From Thermoplasmatota archaeon (GTDB taxonomy: Archaea > Thermoplasmatota > E2 > JACPAO01 > JAHFTW01), in the NCBI GenBank assembly GCA_041581335.1, contig JBFIDG010000001.1, forward strand, positions 1 to 62,910: a stretch of 62,910 bases of DNA, written 5' to 3'. Numbering within the stretch: the stretch's first letter is position 1; every line of letters starts with the position of its first letter. This document shows, in pieces, positions 3,049 to 61,486 of this stretch. A program made the position numbers and the translations under genes. A model generated the notes under the pieces. The model worked only from the letters and a program-made list of their open reading frames with translations. It did not search any database and was not told where the DNA came from.

Positions 3049-4568
3049 ACATCGAAGCCAAGATCCAAGCCGAAGCCGACGCCCTGCAACGTGAATGGTC
3101 CCGGGACCTTCGGTGGCAAGGGGTGCGACGAGACTACTCCGCCGAGGAGGTAGTGCGGCTGCGCGGGAGCATCCAGTTCGATCACCCCTTGGCCCGCCAC
3201 GGCGCAGAACGCCTGTGGAATCTCCTCAACGGCGGCGGTGGAGACAACTACATCAACGCCCTGGGGGCGGTGTCCGGCAACCAGGCGATGCAGATGGTCC
3301 GTGCTGGATTGAAGGCGATCTACCTATCCGGCTGGCAGGTCGCGGCGGACGGCAATCTCTCGGAGACGATGTATCCAGACCAGAGCCTGTACCCTGTGAA
3401 TTCGGTGCCCGCCATGGTGCGGCGTATCAACAACTGCTTGCGCCGCGCGGACCAGATCGAGTGGGCTGAGGGGGACGTGAGCCGGGATTGGTTCGTCCCG
3501 ATTGTAGCCGACGCGGAGGCCGGTTTCGGCGGCCCGCTCAACGCCTTCGAACTGATGAAGGACATGATCGAGGCAGGGGCCGCCGCGGTGCATTTCGAGG
3601 ACCAGCTGGCCTCGGAGAAGAAGTGCGGCCACCTGGGGGGCAAGGTCCTGGTCCCCACGAGCCATGCCATCCGGCAACTCAAAGCGGCCCGCCTGGCGGC
3701 AGACGTCAAAGGTGTTCCGACGGTCCTTGTCGCCCGCACGGATGCCCGCGCGGCGACGCTGCTCACGAGCGATGTCGACCCCATCGACCACGCACACATC
3801 ACCGGCGAACGCACGCCGGAAGGCTACCTGCGGATCAAGGCGGGCCTGGACCATGCCATCGCACGGGCCCTGGCGTACGCGCCATACGCCGATGTGCTGT
3901 GGTGCGAGACAGGGACGCCTGATCTGGCCGAGGCGAAGCAGTTCGCCGCCGCGATCCACGCCAAGTTCCCCGGCAAGCTCCTGGCATACAATTGCAGTCC
4001 GAGCTTCAACTGGAAGCAACATCACAGCGACGCCAGCATCGCCGCGTTCCAGGACGAGCTGGGTAAGATGGGGTACCGTTTCCAGTTCATCACCCTGGCC
4101 GGGTTCCACGCGATCAACCACGCCATGTTCCAATTGGCCCAGGGCTACAAGCGCGAACAGATGACCGCGTACGTGCGCTTGCAGGAGGCGGAGTTCGCGG
4201 CCGAGAGCCAGGGCTATACGGCGACCAAGCACCAGCGGGAGGTCGGCACCGGCTACTTCGATGAGGTGTATCGGGCGATCAGTGGCGGCACGAGCAGCAC
4301 GCTGGCGATGGAGGGAAGCACGGAGGCCGAGCAGTTCGCCGCTCCCGCGCTGAAGACCAACGGCCATGTCGCGACAGAGGTATCGAACGGGGCCCGGCCT
4401 GCGCGACCAGGCGCCACGAACGGCAAGAAGGTGGGCAATGGCCATGCCAAGAACGGCCGCAACGGCCACGGGACGGACGGTCATCCTCGCGCCCCGGGCG
4501 AAGACGCGCAGAACGGGGTCCAGCCCGTCGGGTCCGCCGGCGCCGCACAGAAGCGCGACGGCCATTGA
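3045..4568 (+). CDS. aceA: Isocitrate lyase, copy 1, with an Asn/Gly/His-rich C-terminal tail
   Basis: ICL blocks [24 protein letters not shown], catalytic [10 protein letters not shown] and VARTDA are present. Its ATG overlaps the aceB stop (ATGA at 3045-3048). About 70 extra C-terminal residues are absent from copy 2. Confidence 0.9.
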
Positions 4569-4650
4569 CGCGGCCAGGACGGGCATATCCGTTTGTGCCA
4601 AGGAAGCGGCGCCAGGCCCGGCCCTGTCCAGGGGTCCGCCTCCTGTTGGC

Positions 4651-4713
4651 CACCCCTGCACTTCCGATGCAGCTCGAAAAGGTGAACATGTTCGTGTGCC
4701 ATTCGTAAATGTC
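4651..4713 (+). promoter_or_regulatory. Conserved intergenic module, copy A: ORB-like half-site plus GAACATGTTC palindrome element
   Basis: 4651 CACCCCTGCACTTCCGATGCAG; 4683 TGAACATGTTCGTGTGCCATTCGTAAATGTC. It lies 40-100 nt upstream of the aceB copy 2 start. Confidence 0.5.
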
Positions 4714-4715
4714 CG

Positions 4716-4731
4716 ATAGTTTCAAGATATG
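4716..4731 (+). promoter_or_regulatory. Possible TATA-like box for a leaderless aceB copy 2 transcript
   Basis: The A/T-rich string ATAGTTTCAAGATATG is centred about 25-30 nt before ATG 4752, in otherwise GC-rich DNA. Confidence 0.3.
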
Positions 4732-4751
4732 GTCTCCTGCTGTCGTCCTGA

Positions 4752-6347
4752 ATGGAGACCCTCGTGCCCCCCGGCCTCACGCTGGCCACCCCCATCTTGG
4801 ACGGCACCGACGTGCTGAGTCCCGAAGCCCTGGCCTTCGTCGCGGAGCTGTCACGCCGATTCGACGGACGCCGCCGTGGACTGCTCGACGCCAGGCAGGC
4901 ACGGCAGATCGCCTACGATGCCGGCGAGACGCCTGATTTCCTCGCGGACACCTCACACATCCGTGCCGACGACTGGACGGTCGCACCGATCCCGGCCGCC
5001 CTCCAGGACCGTCGCGTCGAGATCACAGGACCCGTCGACCGCAAGATGATGATCAACGCCCTCAACTCCGGCGCCAAGGTCTTCATGGCCGACTTCGAAG
5101 ACAGCCTCAGCCCGACCTGGGCCAACCTCGTGGCCGGCCACCAGAACGTCTACGACGCCACGCGTGGCCGCCTCACCTACGCCCATCCGACCAAGGGCAC
5201 CTACCGGGTCGAGGACGACCCCGCCCAGATGATCTTACGGCCACGCGGCTGGCACCTCGACGAAGCCCACGTGCACGTCGATGGCCACCCAGTCAGTGCG
5301 AGTCTCTTCGACTTCGGCATCTCGTTCTTCCACAACGCCGCCGCCTTGCACGACCAAGGACGCGGCCCCTTCTACTACCTCCCCAAGCTCGAACACCACG
5401 ACGAAGCAAGACTCTGGGACGACGTCTTCCGCCACGCCCAGGACGCCATCGGCCTACCCCCGGGGACCATCAAGGCCACCGTCCTCATCGAGACCCTCCC
5501 CGCCGCCTTCCAGATGGACGAGATCCTGTTCGCGCTCAAAGACCACATCGTCGGCCTGAACGCCGGCCGCTGGGACTACATCTTCAGTTGCATCAAGACC
5601 CTGCGCCGCCACCCCGACAAGACATTGCCCGACCGCGGCCAGGTCACCATGGGCGTGCCCCACATGCGCGCCTACACGCAGCTGCTGATCCAGACGTGCC
5701 ACCGTCGCGGCGCCTTCGCCATGGGTGGCATGAGCGCCTTCATCCCGGACCGGGCCGACCCCGTGCGCACCGAGAACGCCCTGGCCCAAGTCCGCGCGGA
5801 CAAGCAGCGGGAAGCCGCCGACGGCTGTGACGGCACATGGGTCGCCCACCCAGGCCTCGTGCAGGTGGCGATGGAGATCTTCGACGCCGCATTGGCCGGC
5901 GCACCCAACCAACTGCATCGCCCACCCACCACCATCAAGGTGACGGCGGCAGACCTCCTCGACTTCGCGGTCCCCGACGGCCGCACCACCCACGCAGGCG
6001 TCGCCCAGAACGTCGACGTCGGCCTGCGCTACCTCGTCGCGTGGCTCTCCGGCGACGGCGCCGCAGCCATCCACGGACTGATGGAGGATGCCGCCACCGC
6101 AGAGATCAGCCGCAGCCAGCTGTGGCAGTGGACCCAGCACAAGGTGCAGCTCGAAGACGGGCGGCCCGTCACCAAAGCCCTCGTCGCCGACCTGATCACC
6201 GCCACCGCTGCACGGCTGTCCCACGAGGCCCCCGAAGCGCCCGTCGAGACGGCAGCCCAGTTGCTCGCCGACGTCGCATTGGGCGACGCCTTCCCCCCGT
6301 TCCTGACCATCCCCGCCTACGCCACCCTCCAGGAGACCCCCGCATGA
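4752..6347 (+). CDS. aceB: Malate synthase A, copy 2
   Basis: 531-aa paralogue of 1459..3048 with the same conserved blocks. It shares a 128-nt identical tract with copy 1. Confidence 0.9.
4979..5106 (+). repeat. 128-nt tract identical to 1686..1813 (inside aceB copy 2)
   Basis: Same observation. The antisense ORFs 1387..1815 and 4953..5186 in the track share an identical 42-aa string, which confirms it. Confidence 0.9.
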
Positions 6348-7672
6348 ACATCGAAGCCGATATCCAAGCCCAAGCCGACCGACTGCAGCAGGAATGGGAG
6401 ACCCACCCCCGGTGGGCGCACGTGCAACGCGACCACTCCGCCGAAGAGGTCGTGCGCCTGCGCGGCAGTCTGCAGTTCGACTACCCGGTGGCCCGCCACG
6501 GGGCCCAGCGACTCTGGTCGCTCCTGAACGAGGACGAATACATCAACGCCCTCGGCGCCCTCACGGGGAACCAGGCGATGCAGATGGTCCGCGCCGGATT
6601 GAAGGCGATCTACCTATCCGGCTGGCAGGTCGCCGCCGATGCCAACCTGGCCGAACAGATGTACCCCGACCAGAGCCTGTACCCCGTCAACTCCGTGCCG
6701 GCCGTCATCCGACGCATCAACAACACGTTGCGTCGTGCGGACCAGATCGAATGGTCCGAGGGCAACGTGACCCGCGATTGGTTCGTCCCGATCGTCGCCG
6801 ACGCCGAAGCCGGTTTCGGCGGCCCCCTCAACGCGTTCGAGCTGATGAAGAGCATGATCGAAGCGGGCGCGGCCGGCGTGCACTGGGAAGACCAACTCGC
6901 GTCGGAGAAGAAATGTGGTCACCTGGGCGGCAAGGTACTGGTGCCGACCAGCCACCATATCCGCACACTCAAGGCGGCCCGCCTGGCGGCCGATGTCATG
7001 GGTGTCCCGTCATTGATCGTCGCCCGCACCGATGCCCGCGCCGCGACGCTGCTGACCAGCGACGTCGACCCCATCGACCACGCCCACATCACGGGGGAGC
7101 GCACGGCTGAAGGCTACCTGCGCGTGACGCCGGGACTCGAACACGCCATCGCCCGCGGACTCGCTTACGCACCCTATGCCGACCTGATCTGGTGTGAGAC
7201 CAGCACGCCCGACATGGAGGAGGCCCGCGCCTTCGCGGCAGCCATCCACGCCAAGTTCCCGGGCAAGATGCTGGCCTACAACTGCAGCCCCAGCTTCAAC
7301 TGGCGCCAGCACCTGGACGACGACCAGATCGCCCGCTTCCAGACGGAGCTCGGCAAGATGGGCTACAAGTTCCAGTTCATCACGCTCGCCGGGTTCCATG
7401 CCCTGAACGAGTCCATGTTCACGTTGGCCAAGGCGTACGCGAAGGAAGGCATGACCGCCTACGTGCGCTTGCAGGAATCGGAGTTCGCGGCGGAGGCCGA
7501 TGGCTACACCGCCACCAAACACCAACGCGAGGTCGGCACGGGGTACTTCGACGAGGTCTACCGGGCCATCAGTGGTGGCACCAGCAGCACGCTTGCGATG
7601 GAAGGCAGCACCGAGGCCGAACAGTTCAGTACCCCGATCGCGAAGGTCCCGGACCCGAAGAAGACCGGTTGA
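6344..7672 (+). CDS. aceA: Isocitrate lyase, copy 2
   Basis: 442-aa paralogue of 3045..4568 with [22 protein letters not shown] and VARTDA. It has the same ATGA start/stop overlap with the upstream aceB. Confidence 0.9.
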
Positions 7673-7675
7673 GCG

Positions 7676-8452
7676 CTACGCGCCCCGGACCACGTCACGG
7701 ACGCCTGCCTGACACGTCGGGTAGAGCACCATCTCCTGGATGTTGACGTGGGCCGGGCGCGCACAGGACCATGTGATGGCGTCGGCCACGTCCTCAGGGC
7801 GCAGCACGTCGGCGTCGGCGTAGACCTTGGCCGCACGGGCGGTGTCGCCGCGGAAACGCACCTGGCTGAACTCGGTCTCCACGAGTCCCGGCTCGATGTT
7901 GGTGACGCGCACCCCGGTGCCCTGCAGATCGTAGCGGAGGCCTTCGGTGATGGCCGACACGGCGGCCTTGGTGGCGCAATAGACGCCGCCGCCGGGGTAG
8001 GTCCAACGGCCGGCGACGCTGCCAAGGTTCACGATGTGACCTCGGCGCTCGATGAGGGCCGGCAAGGCGACGCGGGTGACCGCCAAGAGGCCCGTCACAT
8101 TGGTGTCGATCATCTCCTGCCAGTCCTCCACGCGAGCGTCCTGCATGGGGTCCGTGCCGCGGGCGAGCCCGGCGTTGTTGACCAGGACATCGACATCGAA
8201 GAGCCGCTTGTGCTGCTTGGCCATGGCCCTGATCTGGGCGACGTCACGGACATCCATGACGACGGGATGTACTGTGGTGCCATGGCTGTCGGCGAGGCGG
8301 TGGGCCAGGTCGTCAAGGCGTGCCTCGCGACGGCCGACGATCGTGACGTGGCTGGCTCCTTGAGCGCAGAACGCTTCGGCCGTGGCGGCGCCGATGCCAG
8401 CGGTGGCTCCCGTGATCAGTACGCGGCGACCCTTGAACGGCAGGACGTCCAT
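7676..8452 (-). CDS. Short-chain dehydrogenase/reductase (NADP-dependent, YdfG-like)
   Basis: Contains the TGATAGIGAA dinucleotide-binding motif, NNAG, and catalytic Y-x3-K (YCATK). Length is 258 aa. Confidence 0.8.
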   Translation of the reverse strand: MDVLPFKGRRVLITGATAGIGAATAEAFCAQGASHVTIVGRREARLDDLAHRLADSHGTTVHPVVMDVRDVAQIRAMAKQHKRLFDVDVLVNNAGLARGTDPMQDARVEDWQEMIDTNVTGLLAVTRVALPALIERRGHIVNLGSVAGRWTYPGGGVYCATKAAVSAITEGLRYDLQGTGVRVTNIEPGLVETEFSQVRFRGDTARAAKVYADADVLRPEDVADAITWSCARPAHVNIQEMVLYPTCQAGVRDVVRGA

Positions 8453-23368: not shown

Positions 23369-24541
23369 TCAAGCGGTGACGTAGCCCACTGCGTCGGGCA
23401 CGGGGGGCGCTTCGGCGAAGTCGCCTTCGCGGCGCTCGATCTTCTGGCCGCCGAGCTCGACGAGCTCGTTGTCTTCCCACTTCGGGTTGAGGCGGGGGCG
23501 GGGCTTGCAGGTCGCCAGCAGGTAGTTGGCGACGATGGGCCAGGCCATGATGACGTCGCTGTACAGCGTCGCCTTGGTGGCCTTGGCGTGGACCTTGCCC
23601 CAGGCCTGGGCTTCCTCGAGGGTGCTGCCGGACAGGCCGTTCCACTCGGGGCGGTCCATGGTGATGTTGACGGCGTATTCGTGGCCTTCGCGGTCCGTGT
23701 ACTCGGTGGTCTCGCAGACCACTTCGCAGTCGTTGACGAAGTTCTTGGGGACGCCGCCACCGAGGTAGATGACGCAGCTCTTCTTGCTGTTGCCTTTGAG
23801 CTGGGTGATCTCCCAGTTGTCCGCGACGGGGTCGTGGATGAAGGTCTTCTTGGTGCCGGCGCGGGTGTGGCGCCAGTGGTTGATGCACAGGCCGATGCCC
23901 ATGGAGCAGTCGGTCAGGGCGGGGATCCACAGGGGGACCTGGAATTCGTTGACCTTCGCGAGCACGCCTTTGTTGACGGCCTTCAGGTCGTTGTAGGCGC
24001 GGCCCTCGTTGATGGTCTGGCCGACGAAATCGGTGAACTGGCGGCTGGTCTTGACGCCGGCGATGTCCTTGTCGTCGGCGAGGTAACTGATGTAGCCGTC
24101 GCAGGCGCGCAGGAAGTCCTCGTCGATGTAGGAGTCGTAGAGGCGGTCGATCATGTGGTCGCGGAGCAACAGGTTGTCGACGCTGGGGCGGCCTTGGCCG
24201 ACGGGGCCGCCGAGGCTCAGGTACAGGTCGTCGTCGATGCAGCCGCCGGTGCTGACCCAGGCGTCGATGAAGCCGGCTTCCATCATCTTGACGAAGAGGT
24301 CGCGCATGCCGGTTGAGATGAGGGTGCCTGCGGTGGCGAGGATGACCGTCGGGCGGTCGGGGTCCTCAAGGGCGCGGCGCAGGATGTCGCAGACTTGGCC
24401 GAGTTGGCGGCCCTGCGCGGAGGTCTGGGCCATCATCTCGATGAGCTTCACGACGTCGCCGGTGGGTTGCACCTGGTTGACGGGGGTCGCAAAGAAGTCG
24501 CTCTTCTTCCATTCGTATTCGGGGTCGATGCGGGATTCCAT
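23369..24541 (-). CDS. dys: Deoxyhypusine synthase
   Basis: DHS blocks: TVILATAGTLISTGMR, AWVSTGGCIDDDL, and LGGGVPKNF with the active-site Lys context EEAQAWGKV. It has a ~45-aa C-terminal extension. Confidence 0.8.
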   Translation of the reverse strand: MESRIDPEYEWKKSDFFATPVNQVQPTGDVVKLIEMMAQTSAQGRQLGQVCDILRRALEDPDRPTVILATAGTLISTGMRDLFVKMMEAGFIDAWVSTGGCIDDDLYLSLGGPVGQGRPSVDNLLLRDHMIDRLYDSYIDEDFLRACDGYISYLADDKDIAGVKTSRQFTDFVGQTINEGRAYNDLKAVNKGVLAKVNEFQVPLWIPALTDCSMGIGLCINHWRHTRAGTKKTFIHDPVADNWEITQLKGNSKKSCVIYLGGGVPKNFVNDCEVVCETTEYTDREGHEYAVNITMDRPEWNGLSGSTLEEAQAWGKVHAKATKATLYSDVIMAWPIVANYLLATCKPRPRLNPKWEDNELVELGGQKIERREGDFAEAPPVPDAVGYVTA

Positions 24542-24870
24542 GGTAGGTCACCTCCTAATATGCCTCAGCAGAGCAGAGCGCTCCGCTGTGGGGGTCGCGC
24601 CAGGAGGGACGCCCACGACCGCAATGACCCGCATCGGCCGGTAGGGTGAATCGAGGGCGTCTTGTAGATGAAACCGGCGCAGCTACGCAGAATCGGGTAT
24701 GGGCGTGCTGCAGGTCCTCAGGGGTGCGGGCGCCGGGCATCTCCAGGGGGCGGCGTGGTGGCGGCACGGCTCCGGCTGGCCGGGGGGCGTGTCGATGGCG
24801 CCGGGCGGCCGCGTTCAGATTCGACGGCGGCGATGAAAAGCACAATAGGGGGGCCATCATCTCTACGGAC

Positions 24871-25506
24871 TTGGTGCCAAACCCCCCACCGCCGTCCCGG
24901 TTGCCAAGGCAAGACCACCGACGACCCCCACCGCCATTCATCAACCTCTCAGGCGACTACCGTTTCCTGCGCGGAGGCTACTGGGCCCTCGTCGACGCTG
25001 AGCTGAACGGCTACGAAAGCCGCCCCAGCCCCATGCAGGCCGCCACTGCGCAGAATTGCGCCGCGGCGATCCTCGTCGCGGAACGGGCCGGCATCCCGTG
25101 CGCCAAGTGGAAGGTCGCCCGCAAGCCCGAGGACGTCAGGCCTCCGGCCCTGCTCGTCCCCAACGCCGGCCACACGGACACCTACTATCACTGCGAGTCG
25201 CCGCGCTCCGCCGCCAGCCAATGGCGCAGCGCCACCCAGAACGGCACCCGCGTCGCCCTGGTCGTCGACAAGGTCGGCCCGCTGAAGTCCATGAACCAGG
25301 TCGTCGGCACCACGACGAGCGAGCACTACAACCTCGCCTGGCGGGTCTGGCAGGCCTTCGGCGTGCCGCTTGCCACAATCTGGTACCTTGACTCCGACGA
25401 TGGCCCACTGTTCGTGAGCCTCGACCCCTTGCTTCTCCATGATCTTACGGAACGGGAACTGCGCATGTTCGAGGAGGTGAGCACACGGCCGATGTCGCCA
25501 TTGTGA
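24871..25506 (+). CDS. Degenerate ATP-grasp-like protein (paralogue of the downstream ligase lacking key catalytic residues)
   Basis: Aligns by eye with the next ORF: DYRFLRGG vs DASFLRLD, AAAILVAERAGIPCAKW vs VQGILERHGVPTPDT, and TIWYLDSDDGPLFVSLDP vs YGVDLKQLTNGAVVIEVNDNP. The ATP-binding Lys block is replaced (PALLVPNAGH vs PIVVKAPSGA). The start is uncertain: TTG 24871, TTG 24901 or ATG 25033. Confidence 0.45.
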   Translation: MVPNPPPPSRLPRQDHRRPPPPFINLSGDYRFLRGGYWALVDAELNGYESRPSPMQAATAQNCAAAILVAERAGIPCAKWKVARKPEDVRPPALLVPNAGHTDTYYHCESPRSAASQWRSATQNGTRVALVVDKVGPLKSMNQVVGTTTSEHYNLAWRVWQAFGVPLATIWYLDSDDGPLFVSLDPLLLHDLTERELRMFEEVSTRPMSPL

Positions 25507-26378
25507 CGGACGCGATGAGTCGCGGCCGTGGCGTCGAGCACAAGGCCATGCAGGCCTACATGCGGCAAGCGCCAGATCACGGCCACACGGCCAAGATCCT
25601 TGATGTCTCAGAATTCCACGAACTGCAGAACTTCGACGCGTCGTTCCTGCGGCTCGACACCAATGTGCTCGGGCTCAGCTTCGCTGCCAGTCGCTACGCC
25701 TGGGAGCTCGGGCACCGCGTCGTCGATGATCCTCGCAGCATCCTCACGTGCATGAACAAGGCCCACGTGCAGGGCATCCTGGAACGCCACGGCGTCCCGA
25801 CCCCCGACACCGTGCTGCTCACCCGCGCCGGCTACGATTCCCTGGACGCCGCCGCGCTGTTCGAAGAACTCGGCAGCCCCATCGTCGTCAAAGCCCCCAG
25901 CGGCGCCTTCAGCAGCGCCGTCGAGAAGGCCCGCGACGAGAAGGAACTGCGCGCCGTGCTGCGCAAGTTCGCCGCCCGCAGTGACGTCGTCCTGCTGCAA
26001 CGCTACACGCCGAGCCTGTTCGACTGGCGCGTCGGCCTGCTGTGCGGCGAACCGCTCTACGCGGCCCGCTACCACATCCCGAAGGGCGCCTGGCGCATCC
26101 ACGACAAGCCAGAAGGCAGTCAGAAGAAGGAATGGGCCAAGGTCGAACGCGTCGAGCTCGAAGACGTCCCTGCCGAGATCATGGATGCCGCCACCCGCGC
26201 CGCAGGCGCCATCGGCCGCAGCCTGTACGGCGTGGACCTGAAGCAGCTCACCAACGGCGCCGTCGTCATCGAGGTCAACGACAACCCCAACATGGACTTC
26301 GGGCAAGAGATCCCGGTCGACTCCCCCATGTATGGCGAGATCATCAACAAGATCGCCACAGAGGGCCCGCGTGCCTAA
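25503..26378 (+). CDS. RimK-like ATP-grasp carboxylate-amine ligase
   Basis: ATP-grasp layout with GSPIVVKAPSGAFSSAV, VLLQRYTP..DWRV and YGVDLK...VVIEVNDNPNMD (Mg/ATP site). The GTG start overlaps the upstream stop. Confidence 0.7.
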   Translation: MTDAMSRGRGVEHKAMQAYMRQAPDHGHTAKILDVSEFHELQNFDASFLRLDTNVLGLSFAASRYAWELGHRVVDDPRSILTCMNKAHVQGILERHGVPTPDTVLLTRAGYDSLDAAALFEELGSPIVVKAPSGAFSSAVEKARDEKELRAVLRKFAARSDVVLLQRYTPSLFDWRVGLLCGEPLYAARYHIPKGAWRIHDKPEGSQKKEWAKVERVELEDVPAEIMDAATRAAGAIGRSLYGVDLKQLTNGAVVIEVNDNPNMDFGQEIPVDSPMYGEIINKIATEGPRA

Positions 26379-26805
26379 GCTGCGCCGTGCGACCCTCGAA
26401 GATCTACCTGGCATCCTAGCGCTTGAAGAGGCAGCTTTCCAGCCGTGGCGCCGGAGCAGTGCGGGCAGCCTGCGCCGCGCCATCACCAGCCCCCACCAGA
26501 CCACCTGGGTGTTGGACGACGGAGGCATCGTCGGCAGCCTCATCCTGTGGCACCGTCGCCTGTCCTTGCGGGTCTATGGCGTCGCGATCGACCCGAGCAT
26601 GCAAGGCAAGGGCCTGGGCACGGTCTTGATGGACCACGCCATCGGACTGGCCCGGAAGAAGCACCAGACTGTGCTTCTGGAAGCGGACGTCAGCGACACA
26701 CGCCTCGTCGCCTGGTACGAACAGCAAGGCTTCGTGAAACAGGTCCGGCGCAAGGACTTCTACGCCGAAGGCAAGGACGCCTGGCGCATGGTGCTCAAGA
26801 CGTAA
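26371..26805 (+). CDS. GNAT family N-acetyltransferase
   Basis: Acetyl-CoA motif A: YGVAIDPSMQGKGLGTVLMDHAI. GTG 26371 overlaps the ligase stop by 8 nt. An alternative upstream start lies at 26332. Confidence 0.75.
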   Translation: MPKLRRATLEDLPGILALEEAAFQPWRRSSAGSLRRAITSPHQTTWVLDDGGIVGSLILWHRRLSLRVYGVAIDPSMQGKGLGTVLMDHAIGLARKKHQTVLLEADVSDTRLVAWYEQQGFVKQVRRKDFYAEGKDAWRMVLKT

Positions 26806-27541
26806 GGATCCGCACCAACAGCCCGCCGGCCATCAGCACGAACAGCGGCTTGATCCACTTGTCCCCGTGCTTGATGCTGGTCCGGCTGCCGACGAAGGCG
26901 CCGACCATGGTGCCGAGCATCATGCCGGCCCCGATGCGCCAGTCGATGACGTCCTCGAACGCGAACAACGCAAGGGCCCCCAGGTTCGACCCGAAGTTGA
27001 AGAGCCGACCATGGGCGGCGGCATCGACGAAGCGCATCCCCAGCAGGCTCACAAGCGCAAAGAGCAGCAGACTGCCGGTGCCGGGCCCGAGCAGGCCGTC
27101 GTAGAACGCGATGATGCCCACCGCGCCCGCTGCGGCCAGGGCGGTCCACAGGTCGGGCAGGCTGTACTTGTCGTCCATCCCGAAGCGGGGGCGCAGCAAG
27201 ACGTAGGCGACCATCGAGATGATGACGATGGCGATGAGACGGAGGATCAAGTCCTCGGGCAGTCGCAACACGGTCCAGGCGCCGGCCATGCTCGTGACGA
27301 CCGCGATAGGGAACAACCACAGCAGCTCGCGTCGGACGAGCCCATGCTTGGCGTACTGCCAGGTCGCCATGCCGCTGGCTCCCGTCCCGGCGACCTTGTT
27401 GGTGGCGATGGCTGCATGCGGGGGTAGGCCTGCGGCGATGATGGCGGGCAACGTGATGACTCCGCCGCCGCCGACCATGCTGTCGATGAAGCCTGCGACC
27501 ACGGCCGCGGGGATGAGCCACCAGAGGGGGTCCACAAGCAT
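26795..27541 (-). CDS. TSUP (TauE/SafE, DUF81) family membrane permease
   Basis: Polytopic 248-aa protein with GFIDSMVGGGGVITLP and ATNKVAG motifs, and an internal repeat typical of TSUP. Confidence 0.75.
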   Translation of the reverse strand: MLVDPLWWLIPAAVVAGFIDSMVGGGGVITLPAIIAAGLPPHAAIATNKVAGTGASGMATWQYAKHGLVRRELLWLFPIAVVTSMAGAWTVLRLPEDLILRLIAIVIISMVAYVLLRPRFGMDDKYSLPDLWTALAAAGAVGIIAFYDGLLGPGTGSLLLFALVSLLGMRFVDAAAHGRLFNFGSNLGALALFAFEDVIDWRIGAGMMLGTMVGAFVGSRTSIKHGDKWIKPLFVLMAGGLLVRILTS

Positions 27542-27565
27542 GCCAGGGGTTGGGGCTTCAAGGCT

Positions 27566-29851
27566 TCAATCGGTCGGGACCGCTTCGGGGATGCCTTGGG
27601 TCATGAGCCGTGCCCGTTGCAGCTGCAGGGGGGTGCCAAGCAGGATGAGGCGGTCTCCCGGTCGTAGGGGGAGCTCGTGCCGATAGGGGACGGGGTGGGA
27701 TTGGTTGCCGCTCCACAGGCCGACGACGAGGGTGCCGGTCTCTTCACGGATGCGCAGCTCCCCGAGCTTCTTCCCCACCCACGAAGACTCCGCGTGCAGC
27801 TCTTGCTCCTCCACGACCGCCGATTGGGTCTGGGCCGTCATGCGGATCGCGTCGCCATGTGCGACGACGAGGGCTTCGCCCCGGGCAAGTTGGTGCATGT
27901 CCCCCAGCATGACGAGGGTGTCTCCGGGACGGATGACGGTGTCTGGGCCGGGGTTGACGGTCTCCTTGCGCCCGCGCTGCAGCACGGCCACCGTCGCACC
28001 AGACATGGCCGAGATGCGGCATTCCCGCAGGCTACGGTTGGCGACAGGCGACCCGGGTGGCACGATGACCGCGGCGAACTTGACGCCCCACGGATACCGG
28101 TCCATGAGGCTGTCCAGGAGCTGGGCATGCGCGGGGTCGTGGCCCAGCACGCGGCCCAGGGTGGCCTCCAGGGCCTGATGGAAGCGGTTGAGCTGTCGCC
28201 AAGCGACGGCGGCGATGATGATAGCGATCGCGGCACCGGCTGCCAGGAACGGCGTGGTCTGCGGGAAGCGCAGGCTCAGCAGCAACAGCACCAGCACGAA
28301 ACCGATGGTCACGACGGCATCGACGAGGCGCTCGCGCACCTTGCCAGCGCCTTCACGCTCGCCTTCCTGCAAGCCGACGAGGCCCCAGACCAAGCGTCGA
28401 TACGACATGAACGCCGCGCGGACCATGGGAAGCGATAGGCCGGCGGCCAGGCCGAACCATATGGCGGTCGGAGGTACGGGCAGGCCCGTGAAGGTCGGGG
28501 TGACCATGGGCGCCAGCCAGGCGGCAAACAGGAACCATCCCGTGATGAGAAGAAGATTGACGGCAAGGAACCTGGCGTGTCCTTGCCACTCGCGTACGGC
28601 GCCACGGGCCTTGTTGCGCCCCCGCATGCCTTGGCCAAGCCAGACGGCGGGGCGGCGGATGGCCTTCGGGAGCTGCCAGAACTTGCGCTCCATGGCCGGG
28701 ATGCCCCGGGTCAGCAGCGCAGATGTGGGCAGCAAGACGACCATGGTACCGACCGCGACGGCACGCATCGCCGGGTGGGCGACGCCGTTGCTCTCGGCGA
28801 CAGCCACCAGGATCAGGCTGAACTCACCGATCGTCGCCAGCGCCACGGCGCTGCGCATGCCTCCGGTGAGGTTGAGCCCCCCGGCGATGCCGGCAGGCAG
28901 GTGGACGAGGGTCTTGCCGAATGCGAAGAGCGCCGCGACGGCCAGAACAAGAGGCCAGACGTGTAGGATGCCCAGGGCGTCGACGGCCAAGCCGCTGGCA
29001 AGGAAGAACACCGCTGCGGCAAGATCCCGCACGCCGGCCAATGTGTTGCGCACCACGTAACGGCTGCCGGCTTCTGCGGCCGCGACACCGGCGAGCAGGG
29101 CGCCCAGTTCAGGCGACCCGGCGAGGTACCCGAGGTAGCCTGCCAAGACGACCAGCCCGGTCGCCCACAGGGCAAGCACCTCGGGGACGTGGCGGCGTGC
29201 CACTTCGTCGAGGATGCGGGGGATGACGAACAACGCCCCCGCAGCGAGAAGGACGAGGAAGAACAGCAGCTTGCCGATGGCCGCCAAGGGGCCGAGCCAG
29301 CCACCGCCATCGCCGCCCAGGACAATGATCAACGCGATCAGCCCCGCGGCCGCCACGTCTTCGGAGACCAGCACTCCAAGCACCCTTTCGCGGGTCTTGC
29401 GGTCCACGCCGGGCAGGGACGTGAGGCGTTCGCCGAACAAGGTGCTGGAGATGGACATCGCCATCCCCATGGCCAGGGACTGGCTGAAACTCCAGCCCGC
29501 CAGGCGGACGGCGGCCGCGACGGCCAGACCCGGGAGCGCGATGTCGAACGGGATGCTCCACGCCGTCGCTCGGAGTGCCCGGCGCAGACGCTTCAGATCC
29601 AGCTCTAAGCCGATGAAGAAAAGCAGCGCCAAGACGCCCAGTTCGGCCAGGTTCTCGATCTCGTGGAGGGACAAGATCTCCGGGAAGGCGAACCCTGCGA
29701 TGAGGCCGGCCGCTAGGTAGCCCAGGGCGGGGGGGAGGCCCAATCGGACGGCCGCCATGCCTGCGGCTGCCATCAAAAGCAGCGCGAGCGCGACGGTCGC
29801 GAGGGGGGCCATCAACGGGCATAGTGTTGCCTGGGCTATCAGGGTGACCAT
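27566..29851 (-). CDS. CPA2-type cation:proton antiporter with extra TM region and two C-terminal RCK_C/TrkA-C domains
   Basis: Has about 12 TM Na/H-exchanger-like segments, additional TMs, then two soluble repeats (..LRECRISAMSGATVAVLQRG..IRPGDTLVMLG.. and ..LGELRIREETGTLVVGLW..LRPGDRLILLG..). Confidence 0.75.
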   Translation of the reverse strand: MVTLIAQATLCPLMAPLATVALALLLMAAAGMAAVRLGLPPALGYLAAGLIAGFAFPEILSLHEIENLAELGVLALLFFIGLELDLKRLRRALRATAWSIPFDIALPGLAVAAAVRLAGWSFSQSLAMGMAMSISSTLFGERLTSLPGVDRKTRERVLGVLVSEDVAAAGLIALIIVLGGDGGGWLGPLAAIGKLLFFLVLLAAGALFVIPRILDEVARRHVPEVLALWATGLVVLAGYLGYLAGSPELGALLAGVAAAEAGSRYVVRNTLAGVRDLAAAVFFLASGLAVDALGILHVWPLVLAVAALFAFGKTLVHLPAGIAGGLNLTGGMRSAVALATIGEFSLILVAVAESNGVAHPAMRAVAVGTMVVLLPTSALLTRGIPAMERKFWQLPKAIRRPAVWLGQGMRGRNKARGAVREWQGHARFLAVNLLLITGWFLFAAWLAPMVTPTFTGLPVPPTAIWFGLAAGLSLPMVRAAFMSYRRLVWGLVGLQEGEREGAGKVRERLVDAVVTIGFVLVLLLLSLRFPQTTPFLAAGAAIAIIIAAVAWRQLNRFHQALEATLGRVLGHDPAHAQLLDSLMDRYPWGVKFAAVIVPPGSPVANRSLRECRISAMSGATVAVLQRGRKETVNPGPDTVIRPGDTLVMLGDMHQLARGEALVVAHGDAIRMTAQTQSAVVEEQELHAESSWVGKKLGELRIREETGTLVVGLWSGNQSHPVPYRHELPLRPGDRLILLGTPLQLQRARLMTQGIPEAVPTD

Positions 29852-29890
29852 TGATGCGAGGGTTCAGGTTGTCCAACACATGGCGGCGGT

Positions 29891-31147
29891 GTGGCCCCGC
29901 TGCCGAAGTGGCATCGTGCATACACGCTGTTCCGCGTCGCCGATGGGGCCACCGCTGCGCTCATCCCGTTGATGGCCGTGACGGCGTACGGGCTCCCCGC
30001 ATGGGGCGCCGCCATGGTGGTCGTCGCCATGAACCTTGCAGGCGTCCCGGCCAGCTACATGTGGGGGACGCTCATGGAAAGCGGGCGTGGTCGGCGGCGG
30101 CTTGCCACGACAGGTTTCGCCGTCGCGGGCACCGCCCTCGTGGGGCTGGCATTCCTGCCGCCCTGGCCGTTGTACTTGCTCGGCGCGGCGGCCTTCACCG
30201 CCTTCGGAGGGGCCACGGCCTCGGCGGCAGGCCGCTTGATCTTGGAAGGTCAGGGCCGGTCCGATTGGGGCGCCATGACCTCCAGACTCAACCTCGTCAT
30301 GTCCAGCGCCTACATGGTCGGGCTGATGGCCGTCATCATCTGGTCGTTCGCCGGCACCTTGGCCCCCCTCGGGGTCTTCCTCGGCGCGGCCGTGCTGTGC
30401 GTGGCCGCGGCCCTCGTGGCCTGGAAGACGATCCGACCCTTCGTGCCGGTCCACGTGTCCGATTGGGACCCCAAACCGCAGGAACAGATGCGTCTCGAAC
30501 GCCCGGTGTGGTTGCCGCAACGGCTGCGCGTCCGCCTACGCTGGCCCAGGACGGCCGGGCCGCACCGCAAACTGGCGCTCGGGGTCGCCATCACGTTCCT
30601 CGGCACGACCGCCTTCAACAGCTCCTTCTCCGGCGTCCTTGCCGCCGACCTGCACCTGTCCGTCGCGCTCGTATTGCTCGCACAGGTCCCCTCGCATCTG
30701 ACCATCCCCATCGGTTTCCGGATGACGCTGCCGATGCTGCGCAGCCACGGCGAACAACGGGTCGCCCGCATCGGCCTCGTCACTCGCCTGCTCACAGTCC
30801 CCGCGATGGCCGTGACGATCTTGTGGTGGCACCCGAACCTCTACTGGTTCCTGCTATCGCTGGGCGCCGTCATGGGCTTGACCTTCGCCATGGTGCAGGC
30901 CACCGTGCCTTGCATCCTCGCCGCGGCGCACCCTCGGTCGACGGGCCGCGGCCTCGGGGCATATCATGGCGCCGTGGCGCTCGGGGTGCTGACCGGCTCG
31001 GGCGTCGTGGCCATCGTCCTGCGCGTCGCGCCATTGGCCTGGTCGTACGCTTTGTCGGTCGCAGGGATGGCCATCGGCACCGGTATCATCCTGTCGGCGC
31101 TGGGCACCGCGGACCGGCTCGCGCTACCTTCGGGGACCAGTTCGTAG
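29891..31147 (+). CDS. MFS-type transporter
   Basis: 418-aa protein with about 12 TM segments and an Arg-rich loop (SGRGRRRL) after TM2. GTG start. Confidence 0.6.
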   Translation: MAPLPKWHRAYTLFRVADGATAALIPLMAVTAYGLPAWGAAMVVVAMNLAGVPASYMWGTLMESGRGRRRLATTGFAVAGTALVGLAFLPPWPLYLLGAAAFTAFGGATASAAGRLILEGQGRSDWGAMTSRLNLVMSSAYMVGLMAVIIWSFAGTLAPLGVFLGAAVLCVAAALVAWKTIRPFVPVHVSDWDPKPQEQMRLERPVWLPQRLRVRLRWPRTAGPHRKLALGVAITFLGTTAFNSSFSGVLAADLHLSVALVLLAQVPSHLTIPIGFRMTLPMLRSHGEQRVARIGLVTRLLTVPAMAVTILWWHPNLYWFLLSLGAVMGLTFAMVQATVPCILAAAHPRSTGRGLGAYHGAVALGVLTGSGVVAIVLRVAPLAWSYALSVAGMAIGTGIILSALGTADRLALPSGTSS

Positions 31148-58485: not shown

Positions 58486-60171
58486 ATGTGTGGCATCGCA
58501 GGCATCCTTGGTCGTGACGACCCCGCACTCGTCCGGCAGATGGCCGACCTCCTCGTCCACCGCGGACCCGACGGCGAAGGGGTCTGGAGCGACGACAACG
58601 TCACCCTCGGCCACCGCCGCTTGAGCATCGTCGACCTGGAAGGCGGCGCCCAACCCATGGAGAGCCACGACGGGCGCTACTGCATCGTGTACAACGGCGA
58701 AGTCTACAACCACGCCGCCGTCCGCGCCAAACTGGCCGCACAGGGCGCCACGTTCCGCACAGACCACTCCGACACCGAGACCATCCTCGAAGGCTACCGT
58801 CGCTGGGGCCCCGACGTCGTGACCCACCTCGAAGGCATGTTCGCCTTCGCCCTCTGGGACACACAAGAACGCAGCCTCTTCATCGCCCGGGATCCGTTCG
58901 GCATCAAGCCGTTCTACTACGCCTGCGCCGACGGCGAGATGGTCTTCGCCAGCGAACAGAAAGCCCTGTTCGCCCACCCTGCTATCGACGCGGTCCCGAA
59001 CCTCGACCGGTTGCGCGAACGGGCCACCTTGGAATTCCTCACCGGTCAAGCCACCCTGTTTGCCGGAATCCACCAGCTTCCGCCCGGCACATGGGCGCTG
59101 TTGCGACCAGACGAACCGGACTTCTGCCGCGTCCTGTGGCAACCTTACTACCACGTCCCCGTCGAACGCTACGCGACGGTCGAAGAAGCGGCCCACGTCA
59201 TCAAGGACCGCTTCGTCGCCTCCGTGCAAGAGCAGCTCATGGCGGACGTGCCTCTTGGCGTCATCCTGAGCGGCGGGTTCGACTCCGCCGTCGTCGCCAC
59301 CGCGCACCAGAAGTTCCTCTCAGACACCCCCATCCACACCTACACGATCGCCGAGTCCGAAGAGGTGGCCGACTTCCAGGCCGCCCGCCGGCTCGCCGAC
59401 CATCTGGGCACCGACCACCACGAGGCCTTCTTCGAGTTCGAAGACGTGCTGCGGGACCTACCCCGCTACACGTACCACAACGAGAACATCAACTACACCG
59501 AGTTCTTCTTCCTGCCACTGTTCGAACGCATGGCCAAGGACGTCAAGGTCGGCCTATGCGGCCAAGGCAGCGACGAACTATGGGGTGGCTATGATCGTTA
59601 CAAGGACCCGCTGGCTTTGGCCAAGGAACGCATCACGCGCATCCGCCGTGCAGCCCCCGCTCACGAAGACGAACTCGCCACATTGGTCAATCTGACCCAC
59701 ATGAGCGGTCAGAGCCTGGCCGAATGGGACCAGCAAGGCCAACTCAACAACTTCCAACTCCGCCTCGTCGACCGCAACTCCATGGCCAGCAGCCTCGAGG
59801 TGCGCGTGCCGTTCCTGAGCCGCCCCCTGCACGCCGCCAGCCGCGCCGTGCCATGGGGCTGGAAGATGGGTGGCCCCACTGGCGGCGACCACGCCGGCAT
59901 GGAGAAATGGATCCTGCGCAAGGCCCTGGAAGAGCTCGGCATGCCCGATGACCTGACCTGGCGCAAGAAGGTCCCCGCTGGCCGCGCCACGGGCCCCCGC
60001 GTCATGGACCAGTTCGAATCACACTGCGCCAAGCTGGTCGACCCCAAGGCCATGGCAGCGCACCCCCTCGGCGGCGCCTTCCAACGGCCCGCCGAATTCT
60101 TGGTCTACCGCCTTTGGGACGAGATCTTTGTCCAAGGCCACCGGACCCCTACATTGGAGGAACTCTGTTGA
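58486..60171 (+). CDS. Asparagine synthase (glutamine-hydrolysing) family amidotransferase
   Basis: N-terminal nucleophile MCGIAG (Ntn GATase II), PP-loop VILSGGFDSAVVA, and an AsnB-type C-terminal domain. Confidence 0.85.
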   Translation: MCGIAGILGRDDPALVRQMADLLVHRGPDGEGVWSDDNVTLGHRRLSIVDLEGGAQPMESHDGRYCIVYNGEVYNHAAVRAKLAAQGATFRTDHSDTETILEGYRRWGPDVVTHLEGMFAFALWDTQERSLFIARDPFGIKPFYYACADGEMVFASEQKALFAHPAIDAVPNLDRLRERATLEFLTGQATLFAGIHQLPPGTWALLRPDEPDFCRVLWQPYYHVPVERYATVEEAAHVIKDRFVASVQEQLMADVPLGVILSGGFDSAVVATAHQKFLSDTPIHTYTIAESEEVADFQAARRLADHLGTDHHEAFFEFEDVLRDLPRYTYHNENINYTEFFFLPLFERMAKDVKVGLCGQGSDELWGGYDRYKDPLALAKERITRIRRAAPAHEDELATLVNLTHMSGQSLAEWDQQGQLNNFQLRLVDRNSMASSLEVRVPFLSRPLHAASRAVPWGWKMGGPTGGDHAGMEKWILRKALEELGMPDDLTWRKKVPAGRATGPRVMDQFESHCAKLVDPKAMAAHPLGGAFQRPAEFLVYRLWDEIFVQGHRTPTLEELC

Positions 60172-61451
60172 ACCAAACCCAAGGCGCCCTTGAGGGCCTC
60201 GACCGCATCCTCGTCGACGCCACCGACCGCATCGAAGACCTGCTCGCCTATCACCGCAACCAGGTCCTCTGTCCGGTCTACACGAGCGTCGACATCCGAC
60301 GCAACCGCCACAAGGCCGCCGTCGTCGACGCCAACGCTTTCCCCGCCGGTTTCAACAACCTCAGCAAGCGCAGCTACACGCAGGCCACGGAGGCGGTGGG
60401 GAGCTACATGGGCAAGGTCTACCCAGGCGCGGAGGAACTGTTGCTGTTGGCGGAGAACCACACCCGCAACAAGTGGTACTTCCAGAACCTCCTGACACTA
60501 CGGGATCTGTTCAGCAGCGCCGGCTACCACGTCACCGTCGGCACCATGGCGGAGGAACTCTTCCCGCAGTCCACCGTCGAGACCGCGCTCGGGGACAAGC
60601 TCGAAGTGCACGGCGTCATCCGCGAGGGCGACGCGCTGATCGCCGATGGTACTGTGCACGACGTGGTCATCCTCAACAACGACCTGTCTGGGGGCACCCC
60701 CGATATCCTCGACGGGCTCAGTCAACCCATCACGCCGCCGCCGGCGATGGGCTGGCACCGCCGCCGCAAGTCGGAGCACTTCCGCATCGTCTGCGAACTG
60801 AGTCGCCAACTGGGCGACTACGTGGGCTTCGACCCGTGGCTGATCAGCGCCGAGTTCGACCGCGCCGACGGCGTGGATTTCAAGGACCGCGACACCCTGG
60901 ATGCCGTCGCCACCAAGATCGATGCGGTGCTCGACAAGGTCCGCGCGAAGTACGATGAATACGGTGTCGACCGCGAGCCCCACGTCTTCGTGAAGGCCGA
61001 CGCCGGCACCTATGGTATGGGGGTCATGGACACCACCAGTGGCGATGATTTCCTACGCCTCAACAGCAAGGGCCGCGAGAAGATGGCCAAAGGAAAAGAG
61101 GGGGTCAAGACGACCTCACTCATCATCCAGGAAGGCGTGCACACAGGCATCCGCAGCAGTGGCGCCGTCGCCGAGCCCGTCATGTACATGGTCTGCGGCA
61201 GCGTCGTGGGCGGCTTCAACCGCATCCACAAGGACAAGTCCGACACCCAGAGCCTCAACTCGCCTGGCAGCACCTTCGAGCCCATGGCGTTCAGCACCCA
61301 GATGCAGAGCGCGGCAGGGCCCGACGAGGTCGTCATGGACGACGTCAGCCGCCACGTCTACCAGGTGCTCGGCGAGATCGCCAGCATCGCCACCGGCTAC
61401 GAACACAAGCTCGCGGCGACCCCTGGCGCGGCGTTACCCACGTATCCGTAG
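60168..61451 (+). CDS. GshA-type (Acidithiobacillus ferrooxidans family) ATP-grasp glutamate--cysteine-ligase-like enzyme
   Basis: YTSVDIRRNRHKAAVVDANAFPAGFNNL and VFVKADAGTYGMGV match my recollection of the rare GshA family (Pfam GshA / TIGR gshA_ferroox). TTG 60168 overlaps the asnB-like stop. An upstream ATG at 60114 is an alternative. Confidence 0.55.
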   Translation: MNQTQGALEGLDRILVDATDRIEDLLAYHRNQVLCPVYTSVDIRRNRHKAAVVDANAFPAGFNNLSKRSYTQATEAVGSYMGKVYPGAEELLLLAENHTRNKWYFQNLLTLRDLFSSAGYHVTVGTMAEELFPQSTVETALGDKLEVHGVIREGDALIADGTVHDVVILNNDLSGGTPDILDGLSQPITPPPAMGWHRRRKSEHFRIVCELSRQLGDYVGFDPWLISAEFDRADGVDFKDRDTLDAVATKIDAVLDKVRAKYDEYGVDREPHVFVKADAGTYGMGVMDTTSGDDFLRLNSKGREKMAKGKEGVKTTSLIIQEGVHTGIRSSGAVAEPVMYMVCGSVVGGFNRIHKDKSDTQSLNSPGSTFEPMAFSTQMQSAAGPDEVVMDDVSRHVYQVLGEIASIATGYEHKLAATPGAALPTYP

Positions 61452-61486
61452 CAGCCCTTTTTGTCGCAGGGGCTCTATCAAGGTCC

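Follow-up and report, generated by a model that had tools for sequence, protein, structure and literature searches.

The three-gene locus and its products

Three plus-strand open reading frames (ORFs) fill positions 24874-26805 of the window, by which we mean the whole 62,910-nt stretch of DNA that was analysed. The window has a G+C content of 63-69% and comes from an uncultured Thermoplasmatota archaeon. As judged from sequence and predicted structure, the three genes encode a non-catalytic protein of the RLAN family (ORF1), a RimK-like ATP-grasp ligase (ORF2) and a RimI-like GNAT acetyltransferase (ORF3). The locus was present in marine-metagenome runs, and its close relatives originated from groundwater and marine sand. 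In a check for RNA-seq support, the runs containing the locus were found to be DNA of marine metagenomes only. The main features are as follows.

24874-25506, plus strand: ORF1, 210 aa, standalone RLAN-family protein (PF14401 match, AlphaFold2 model, alignments)
25473-25487, plus strand: Shine-Dalgarno (SD) sequence GGAGGTGA (25473-25480), 4-nt spacer and ACG (25485-25487), inside the 3' end of ORF1
25485-26378 (25503-26378 from GTG), plus strand: ORF2, RimK-like ATP-grasp amidoligase (PF08443, TIGR00768, PDB matches)
26371-26805 (or from ATG 26332), plus strand: ORF3, RimI-like GNAT acetyltransferase (PF00583, TIGR01575, PDB match)

An earlier note, made from the letters of the window, had reported overlapping start and stop codons at both gene junctions, and these were verified in the sequence. 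GTG 25503 and the TGA of ORF1 (25504-25506) overlap as GTGA (25503-25506), and GTG 26371 overlaps the TAA of ORF2 (26376-26378) by 8 nt (26371-26378). The motifs quoted there were also all present: PALLVPNAGH and LFVSLDP in ORF1, PIVVKAPSGA and VIEVNDNPNMD in ORF2. The reading frame of ORF1 is open over 24646-25506, and nothing upstream of 24874 was conserved as protein. The first gene had been said to have no clear start codon; alignment with homologue starts fixed it at GTG 24874, the counterpart of the TTG at which L011 starts, with TTG 24871 as an alternative. The closest homologues begin MPNPP... or MSHPP..., with called TTG/Met starts, and the public gene call for ORF1 (157 aa, P0004) is truncated. 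ORF2 has 291 aa from GTG 25503 and 297 aa from ACG 25485, with ATG 25515 as a further in-frame start. ORF3 has 144 aa from GTG 26371 and 157 aa from ATG 26332.

The middle gene is, as proposed earlier, a complete RimK-like ATP-grasp ligase. ORF2 scored 36.3 bits against PF08443, above the gathering score of 21, and its catalytic motifs were intact. The catalytic set (numbered from GTG 25503) comprises K130 (VVKAP), Q166, D174-W175-R176, D245, E257 and N259. K130, Q166, R176, D245, E257 and N259 were invariant or nearly so in the family alignment, and aligned to LysX and RimK. The best PDB matches were LysX 3vpd and RimK 7qyr, with alignments spanning the Lys and the D/E/N motifs. ORF2 scored 82 bits against TIGR00768 rimK_fam (cutoff 143), 69 against the LysX hidden Markov model (HMM; cutoff 276), 28 against PRK10446 (cutoff 331) and 48 bits against MptN. 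These scores point to a RimK-family ATP-grasp ligase, predicted to be active, that by equivalog cutoffs is neither RimK proper (the S6:Glu ligase) nor LysX. The nearest characterised HMMs, those of RimK, LysX and MptN, all represent alpha-amino-acid:carboxylate ligases, which join an alpha-amino acid to a carboxylate via an acyl-phosphate.

ORF3 carries the acetyl-CoA motif QGKGLG at 26602-26619. It scored 50.5 bits against PF00583 (gathering score 20.7) and 58.3 bits against TIGR01575 rimI, below the cutoff of 86.4. Its best PDB match was RimI 9mto (E 2.5e-9). The predicted product is a RimI-like GNAT acetyltransferase, and not RimI proper by the equivalog cutoff.

ORF1 and its association with the ligase

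A total of 93 ORF1 homologues were found, with 53-88% identity, all from Thermoplasmatota metagenome-assembled genomes and metagenomes. PF14401 (RLAN) matched ORF1 with an E-value of 1.5e-4 and 21.8 bits, below the gathering score of 25. Across the family it matched 43 of 44 members (best E 6.8e-8), and no other family matched at E<=0.01. On this profile evidence, ORF1 is a divergent branch of the RLAN family. RLAN stands for "RimK-like ATP-grasp N-terminal domain", which Pfam describes only as an uncharacterised alpha+beta domain.

An AlphaFold2 model of ORF1, built on the family alignment, had a mean predicted local distance difference test (pLDDT) score of 82 and a predicted TM-score of 0.76, and was confident over residues 40-200. 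Foldseek comparison of this model with the PDB gave 437 matches at E<=0.001, and the best 50 of the 437 were all ATP-grasp proteins, with query TM-scores (TMq) of 0.52-0.63. LysX 3vpd was at the top (E 1.6e-9, TMq 0.60); RimK, ArgX and Ddl also appeared. The earlier view of ORF1 as a non-catalytic ATP-grasp relative was thereby confirmed, at the level of the fold only.

Residue equivalences between ORF1 and the ligase were assigned by the order of secondary-structure elements, not by 3D superposition. In this order, ORF1 92-96 (ALLVP) corresponds to the PIVVK strand of the ligase, and ORF1 177-185 (GPLFVSLDP) to AVVIEVNDNP. All 44 aligned ORF1 members had a PxLLVPxAG strand without Lys, and FxxLDPL in place of xIEVNxxP. 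The loss of the ATP-binding Lys and of the Glu/Asn Mg ligands, which the earlier note had read from the single sequence, thus extends across the family. According to the model, ORF1 is a non-catalytic, decayed ATP-grasp fold.

Other positions of ORF1 were strictly kept. The family-invariant polar residues include D28, R30, R33, D41, T58, Q60, N61, R111, Q116, R118, Q122, N123, T125, R126 and D184, and the clade-specific invariant motifs are GDYRFLRGGYWALVDAELNG and QWRSATQNGTR. The invariant Arg, Gln, Asn and Asp residues fit the binding of an anionic substrate or growing product. Residues 1-21 (24874-24936) are Pro-rich and disordered (pLDDT about 55). A (P)xRLPxR(R) motif in this N-terminus was kept in nearly all Thermoplasmatota homologues despite variable length, and may be a short linear interaction motif.

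Gene order was compared across 19 loci from species-representative genomes with an ORF1 relative, of which 18 were informative. In all 18 ORF1 was followed by the ligase, and in 17 the ligase was followed by the GNAT gene, so that the proposed three-gene cassette is a conserved neighbourhood. The ratio of nonsynonymous to synonymous substitutions (dN/dS) against three relatives was 0.03-0.20 for ORF1, 0.03-0.15 for ORF2 and 0.13-0.28 for ORF3. The three genes are real and under strong purifying selection. The dN/dS of ORF1 was similar to that of the ligase, which means that the "degenerate" gene is under the same degree of constraint as its catalytic neighbour; together with the 93 homologues, this settles its status as a gene, as the earlier note had supposed. 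A same-strand permease of the ArsB/NhaD/DASS/CitMHS superfamily came directly after the GNAT gene in 7 of the 18 loci, and also at L003.

Outside this clade, the same domains occur in a widespread module. Homologues of ORF2 fell into a Thermoplasmatota group (62-95% identity) and a broad group (~40% identity). The broad group comprises standalone ligases of ~292-298 aa and fused RLAN-RimK proteins of ~482-510 aa, called "RimK family protein" by NCBI. Fused relatives of ~490 aa at ~40% identity were P0227, P0234, P0239 and P0251. At all standalone ligases examined (L008, L009, L031, L032 and the P0243 locus; L009 is Archaeoglobaceae by its NCBI protein name), a standalone RLAN gene lay immediately upstream. 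These split RLAN genes abut or overlap the ligase codons in distant phyla. The fused family numbers at least 5,888 clusters at 90% identity, among them a canonical protein from a Pseudomonas aeruginosa record (PF14401, 166 bits). A search of 1.84 billion representatives with the ORF1 profile gave 41 matches, all standalone and of <=304 aa. The link from ORF1 to the fused RLAN therefore comes through Pfam and the relatives of ORF2, not through ORF1 profile matches. Fusion of RLAN to the ligase elsewhere provides a Rosetta-stone argument, drawn from sequence comparison, that the two proteins may associate physically.

The AlphaFold2 model of a fused protein (pLDDT 87) pointed to the origin of RLAN. 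Its RLAN helices (H) and strand (E), H54-64/E68-70/H73-80/H82-88, repeat the ligase elements H254-264/E268-270/H273-280/H282-291 at an offset of 200 residues, and the last helix-strand-strand-helix unit of RLAN repeats that of the ligase. Foldseek of the fused model recovered the ligase half only, and searches of the PDB found no solved structure with RLAN. Standalone RLAN has ~50-70 extra residues in its middle, forming a "GIPxP...PxLLxP" helix-strand and central ATP-grasp strands that are lost in fused RLAN. It is the less decayed form, and since it keeps more of the ancestral fold, it is a missing link for RLAN as a decayed ATP-grasp duplicate.

The third partner of the pair varied. It was a plain GNAT at L008 (by tblastn and Pfam) and L032, and a GNAT fused to a DUF3335/C39-like papain-fold peptidase at L007 and the P0243 locus. 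At L006 it was a C39-like peptidase alone. L009 and L031 had a GCS2 carboxylate-amine ligase with a CxxCxxCC protein, and a Legionella plasmid had GCS2 with N-formylglutamate amidohydrolase. Second ligases and amidohydrolases among the partners are a signature of small-peptide pathways. An ornithine/arginine (Orn/Arg) decarboxylase gene lay upstream at the P0243 locus. On L031, an unrelated archaeal contig, two deoxyhypusine synthase (DHS)-family genes stood beside the RLAN/ligase pair (3328-7925). This adjacency echoes that in Thermoplasmatota and could be coincidence or a polyamine link.

Ligase start codon and genomic surroundings

The ligase N-terminus of the sister group (L017-L026) and of bacteria reads M-A-x-(V/I)-A-I-(V/I)-S-D, starting from ATG or GTG after an SD sequence. 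The group of the window has the corresponding strand x-A-(D/H/N)-V-A-I-V-(S/T)-D in the ORF2 frame, overlapping the end of ORF1. In the window clade, the coding sequence of this conserved N-terminus precedes every canonical start. The junction of the window was compared with those of L003, L005, L010-L016, L021, L027 and L033-L036. The codon at the initiator position was ACG in 15 of 16 loci (11/12, plus 4/4 further metagenome contigs). L027 had ATG there, and this locus and nine group-2 loci all had ATG or GTG. The ACG always stood 4 nt after GGAGGTGA, or after GGGGGTGA in two loci.

Two observations indicate that this region is read in the ligase frame. L012, L013, L021 and L003 have no ATG, GTG or TTG in that frame until a Met 22 codons downstream. 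The 17 codons between the ORF1 stop and this Met had, in the same four loci, a pooled dN/dS of 0.16 (proportion of synonymous differences, pS, 0.69), which argues that codons before the first Met are translated. Furthermore, the ORF1 codon overlapping the ACG always ended in A (ACA, GCA, CAA or AAA), while its amino acid varied (T/A/Q/K). A-ending codons make up 7.8% of codons in the window genes, and an invariant one that does not keep its amino acid points to selection on the ACG in the ligase frame.

Ligase initiation at the ACG, by near-cognate initiation or by termination-reinitiation, is the simplest reading of these comparisons, and we put its likelihood a shade above even. An ACG start would give a 22-nt overlap between ORF1 and ORF2, and probably low, coupled expression of the catalytic subunit. 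The earlier note had taken GTG 25503 as the ligase start: its overlap with the ORF1 stop exists, but the conserved start is probably ACG 25485. The window also offers GTG 25503 and ATG 25515 as starts; neither is conserved across the group. Database entries for the ligase are often shortened by gene callers, to about 276-287 aa, because the conserved N-terminus lies upstream of the canonical starts. A -1 frameshift joining ORF1 and ORF2 was considered and rejected: the overlap holds no X XXY YYZ slippery heptamer, the window open in both frames is only ~28-31 nt (L021, L005), and the stop-proximal codons differ between loci. No report of ACG start use in archaea was found in the literature, and a review of start codons lists only AUG, GUG and UUG for prokaryotes (PMC4705826).

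The operon is flanked by the following features.

23369-24541, minus strand: divergent DHS gene, upstream neighbour
24542-24873: GC-rich intergenic spacer, 332 nt, between the divergent DHS gene and ORF1
26795-27541, minus strand: convergent TauE-family permease gene, downstream neighbour

The spacer corresponds to the GC-rich non-coding stretch noted earlier. It held no conserved or plausible small ORF and no LysW-like carrier, and an Rfam search of the window matched no family. An A/T-rich BRE (B-recognition element)/TATA-like box, GAAAAGCACAATA, lies at 24835-24847, about 27-33 nt 5' of the ORF1 start. In spacer alignments with L010, L011 and L012, the box was conserved in L010. There is no SD sequence between the box and the ORF1 start, and this arrangement suggests that the operon mRNA is leaderless or near-leaderless, the promoter being assigned from the box.

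The same alignments showed a conserved DHS-proximal part of 160 nt and a hypervariable middle with indels (24700-24830). In the minus-strand sense, the ~160 nt 5' of the DHS ATG at 24541 (24542-24700) were near-identical in L010 and L011, and their core, minus-strand TTCATCTAC with its flanks, was also retained in L012. This stretch contains the SD sequence of the DHS gene (GGAGGTGA, minus strand, 24548-24555), and may be a long 5' leader or the promoter of DHS. Sister-group DHS genes differ in carrying a GGAAAAACGTTCAAG box ~30 nt away from the ATG. DHS lay 0.3-4 kb upstream in about 10 Thermoplasmatota loci. At the other end of the operon, ORF3 and the convergent TauE-family gene share their last 11 nt (26795-26805), the ORF3 stop included, and no terminator-like hairpin was seen between the two genes.

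Divergence over 23369-31147 was mosaic when the window was compared with L010 and L011. Protein identity to L011 was 99% for DHS, 88% for ORF1, 89% for the ligase, 73% for the GNAT and 85% for TauE. Against L010 it was 97-98% for DHS, ORF1 and the ligase, 87% for the GNAT, 89% for a Na+/H+ exchanger and 82% for a major facilitator superfamily gene. The pattern is suggestive of homologous recombination, with breakpoints within the intergenic spacer and close to the GNAT gene. Farther away, at 58486-62191, one strand encodes a glutamine amidotransferase of the AsnB type with 561 aa, a PF08886 ligase resembling GshA with 445 aa, and a protein of the metallo-beta-lactamase fold. This is a second amidoligase cluster in the window. 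A partnership with the cassette, by analogy with AsnO and Ngg, is conceivable in principle, but 32 kb separate the two.

Proposed function and alternative readings

We propose that a dead/active ATP-grasp heteromer and a capping acetyltransferase make a short N-acetylated, probably acidic, peptide or conjugate, and consider this model as a whole probable. ORF1, as a decayed ATP-grasp copy unable to bind ATP or Mg in the usual way, would form a fixed heteromer with ORF2 and act as its non-catalytic scaffold or substrate-binding subunit. ORF2 would activate a carboxylate as acyl-phosphate and ligate it to an amino acid through the amino group of the latter; L-glutamate or a similar residue is the most plausible candidate, possibly added repeatedly. 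ORF3 would use acetyl-CoA to cap the free alpha-amino group of the substrate or product. The three genes would be expressed as one translationally coupled operon, the ligase probably starting at the SD-led ACG within the 3' end of ORF1. The two proteins are fused elsewhere, their genes are invariably adjacent when split, and both are equally constrained; these three points favour a single enzyme, made up of ORF1 and ORF2 and having one active site. An acetylated peptide or conjugate is favoured by the partner genes (a second ligase, amidohydrolases or peptidases, permeases), which are typical of small-peptide metabolism, and the product would more likely be a small molecule than a protein tail.

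Several points weigh against this model. The segment-by-segment alignment of ORF1 and ORF2 in the earlier note stood in its element order, with PALLVPNAGH and LFVSLDP placed as proposed, but not as a sequence alignment. BLASTP of ORF1 against ORF2 gave no match, hhalign of the two family profiles gave a probability of 0.1%, and a search of all PDB chains with the ORF1 profile gave no ATP-grasp match. The sole weak hhalign segment, ORF1 36-77 against ORF2 60-101, is a structurally equivalent one. Kinship of ORF1 to ATP-grasp enzymes thus stands on predicted structure, and sequence homology is undetectable. The invariant Arg, Gln, Asn and Asp residues of ORF1 could signal an activity of its own. 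In the sub-clade of the window the permease is missing, with TauE in its place, and the best NCBIfam matches of the permease elsewhere were far below cutoffs and leave its substrate class undefined. By analogy with RimK and RimI, which classically modify proteins, the target could be a protein. Finally, the literature on RLAN, PF14401 and DUF3335 contained no experimental work on the module that we could find.

Such a protein target is the basis of a different reading, in which the ligase tails an unlinked archaeal protein in the style of RimK on S6, the GNAT acetylates the N-terminus and ORF1 recognises the target. Both best matches of ORF2, RimK and LysX, act on proteins (S6 and the LysW carrier), the best matches of ORF3 include the N-terminal acetyltransferases Naa30 and Ard1 beside RimI, and the peptidase partners of the bacterial versions could be erasers. 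However, bS6 and bS18 are lacking in archaea, no small carrier-like ORF lies in or beside the operon, the HMM scores were all far under the equivalog cutoffs, and the partners found elsewhere, namely second ligases, amidohydrolases and permeases, are typical of metabolite pathways. We consider protein modification unlikely. That ORF1 is no partner of the ligase at all, and merely shares the operon as an independent regulator or binding protein, would agree with its own clade-specific invariant motifs. This seems most improbable to us, given that at least 5,888 clusters carry this domain fused to a ligase of the same subfamily, and that the split form always lies directly upstream of the ligase, with overlapping or abutting codons, in distant phyla.

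Two further readings keep a small-molecule product and change its nature. An Ngg-type osmolyte route, from GNAT and ATP-grasp to N-acetylglutaminylglutamine (NAGG) and, by AsnO-like amidation, to the compatible solute NAGGN (N-acetylglutaminylglutamine amide), would match in enzyme chemistry and suit the marine metagenome source. An AsnB-like amidotransferase is present in the window (58486-60171), and the neighbours include a Na+/H+ exchanger with a TrkA-C domain. On the other side, the Ngg family model (TIGR03103) was not among the NCBIfam matches of ORF1 and ORF3 or among the best 25 of ORF2, beyond which lay five weaker matches with E-values from 0.0046 to 0.1. A plasmid tblastn gave "RimK family protein" genes, none annotated ngg; the AsnB-like gene, at a distance of 32 kb, has a GshA-like ligase as its partner, and close relatives come from groundwater too, not from marine sand alone. 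We therefore rate this route very unlikely, and the pairing with N-acetyl-dipeptide synthesis that the earlier note had drawn survives as an analogy, without membership in the Ngg family. If the ligase and GNAT instead conjugated or acetylated a polyamine or related amine, the operon would be tied to the neighbouring DHS gene. The DHS genes upstream in about 10 Thermoplasmatota loci, the two DS-family genes adjoining the pair in the independent lineage L031 and the decarboxylase at the P0243 locus would agree with this, and GNATs commonly acetylate polyamines. Yet DHS is a housekeeping gene on the opposite strand, the adjacency amounts to one inherited synteny block and one further case, and none of the three proteins matched a polyamine-specific family. 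A polyamine function appears extremely unlikely.

In place of these alternatives, the model of a heteromer making an acetylated peptide or conjugate can be set against known systems. The bacterial RLAN-RimK modules with GNAT or GNAT-DUF3335 (PF14401, PF11814) have the same three domains and tight gene coupling. ORF2 was about 40% identical to the ligase half of the bacterial fused proteins. Aligned over its entire length, ORF3 shared 29% identity with the GNATs of bacterial RLAN systems: the L032 partner and, in the GNAT-DUF3335 peptidase fusion of L007, the GNAT domain. Unlike the fused bacterial "RimK family protein", the archaeal RLAN and ligase are separate genes, and standalone RLAN is without the first strands of the pre-ATP-grasp half. 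The GNAT here has no peptidase domain, whereas the GNAT that usually neighbours the bacterial fusion is often a GNAT-papain-like peptidase, and the order is RLAN-ligase-GNAT instead of GNAT first. The clade is archaeal (Thermoplasmatota), and ORF1 falls below the Pfam gathering threshold. The Planctomycetota-type loci L008 and L032 have the identical RLAN-ligase-GNAT order, overlapping starts and stops and a plain GNAT; they differ in identity (24-41%), in their neighbours (MgtC, SpoIIE) and in that the bacterial copies start with canonical ATG.

A RLAN/RimK-like/GNAT-peptidase neighbourhood was reportedly predicted by comparative genomics by Iyer, Abhiman, Burroughs and Aravind (Mol Biosyst 2009). 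This 2009 prediction is referred to in passages of PMC4431377 and PMC10318531. The trio is a split, peptidase-less variant of this widespread, catalogued module, and is not new in kind. The novelty implied by the earlier note was overstated, as ORF1 belongs to a named domain family (PF14401) and bacteria, too, have split forms with a plain GNAT (L008, L032).

More distant parallels concern the chemistry. Ngg is the N-acetylglutaminylglutamine synthetase of the asnO-ngg NAGGN operon, and in animals NAT8L with RIMKLA or RIMKLB makes N-acetylaspartylglutamate (NAAG). The shared logic is an acetyl-CoA-dependent GNAT and a RimK-type ATP-grasp enzyme yielding an N-acetyl dipeptide. The window has no family-level match to Ngg and no adjacent amidotransferase, so the likeness is a functional analogy only. 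RimK and RimI (S6 glutamylation and S18 acetylation in E. coli) and LysX/ArgX-LysW are the best structural or HMM matches of ORF2 and ORF3, with scores far below equivalog cutoffs and no LysW-like carrier gene in the window. bS6 and bS18 are absent from archaea, and the RimK, RimI and LysX/ArgX-LysW systems are not known to have a dead ATP-grasp partner. A more specific version of our model is that the operon makes an undescribed N-acetylated oligo-acidic metabolite resembling NAAG or NAGG via a dead/active heterodimer, and that the subunit ratio is set by coupling at the conserved ACG. This combined proposal is possible, but we regard it as doubtful.

Thousands of protein clusters from bacteria contain the module, and so does an entire clade of archaea. 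In its split form the dead and active halves are separate small proteins, so that the role of RLAN can be tested directly. The junction shows that gene callers systematically shorten the ligase, and ORF1 likewise. The conserved SD-led ACG, if confirmed, would be a case of natural near-cognate initiation in archaea.

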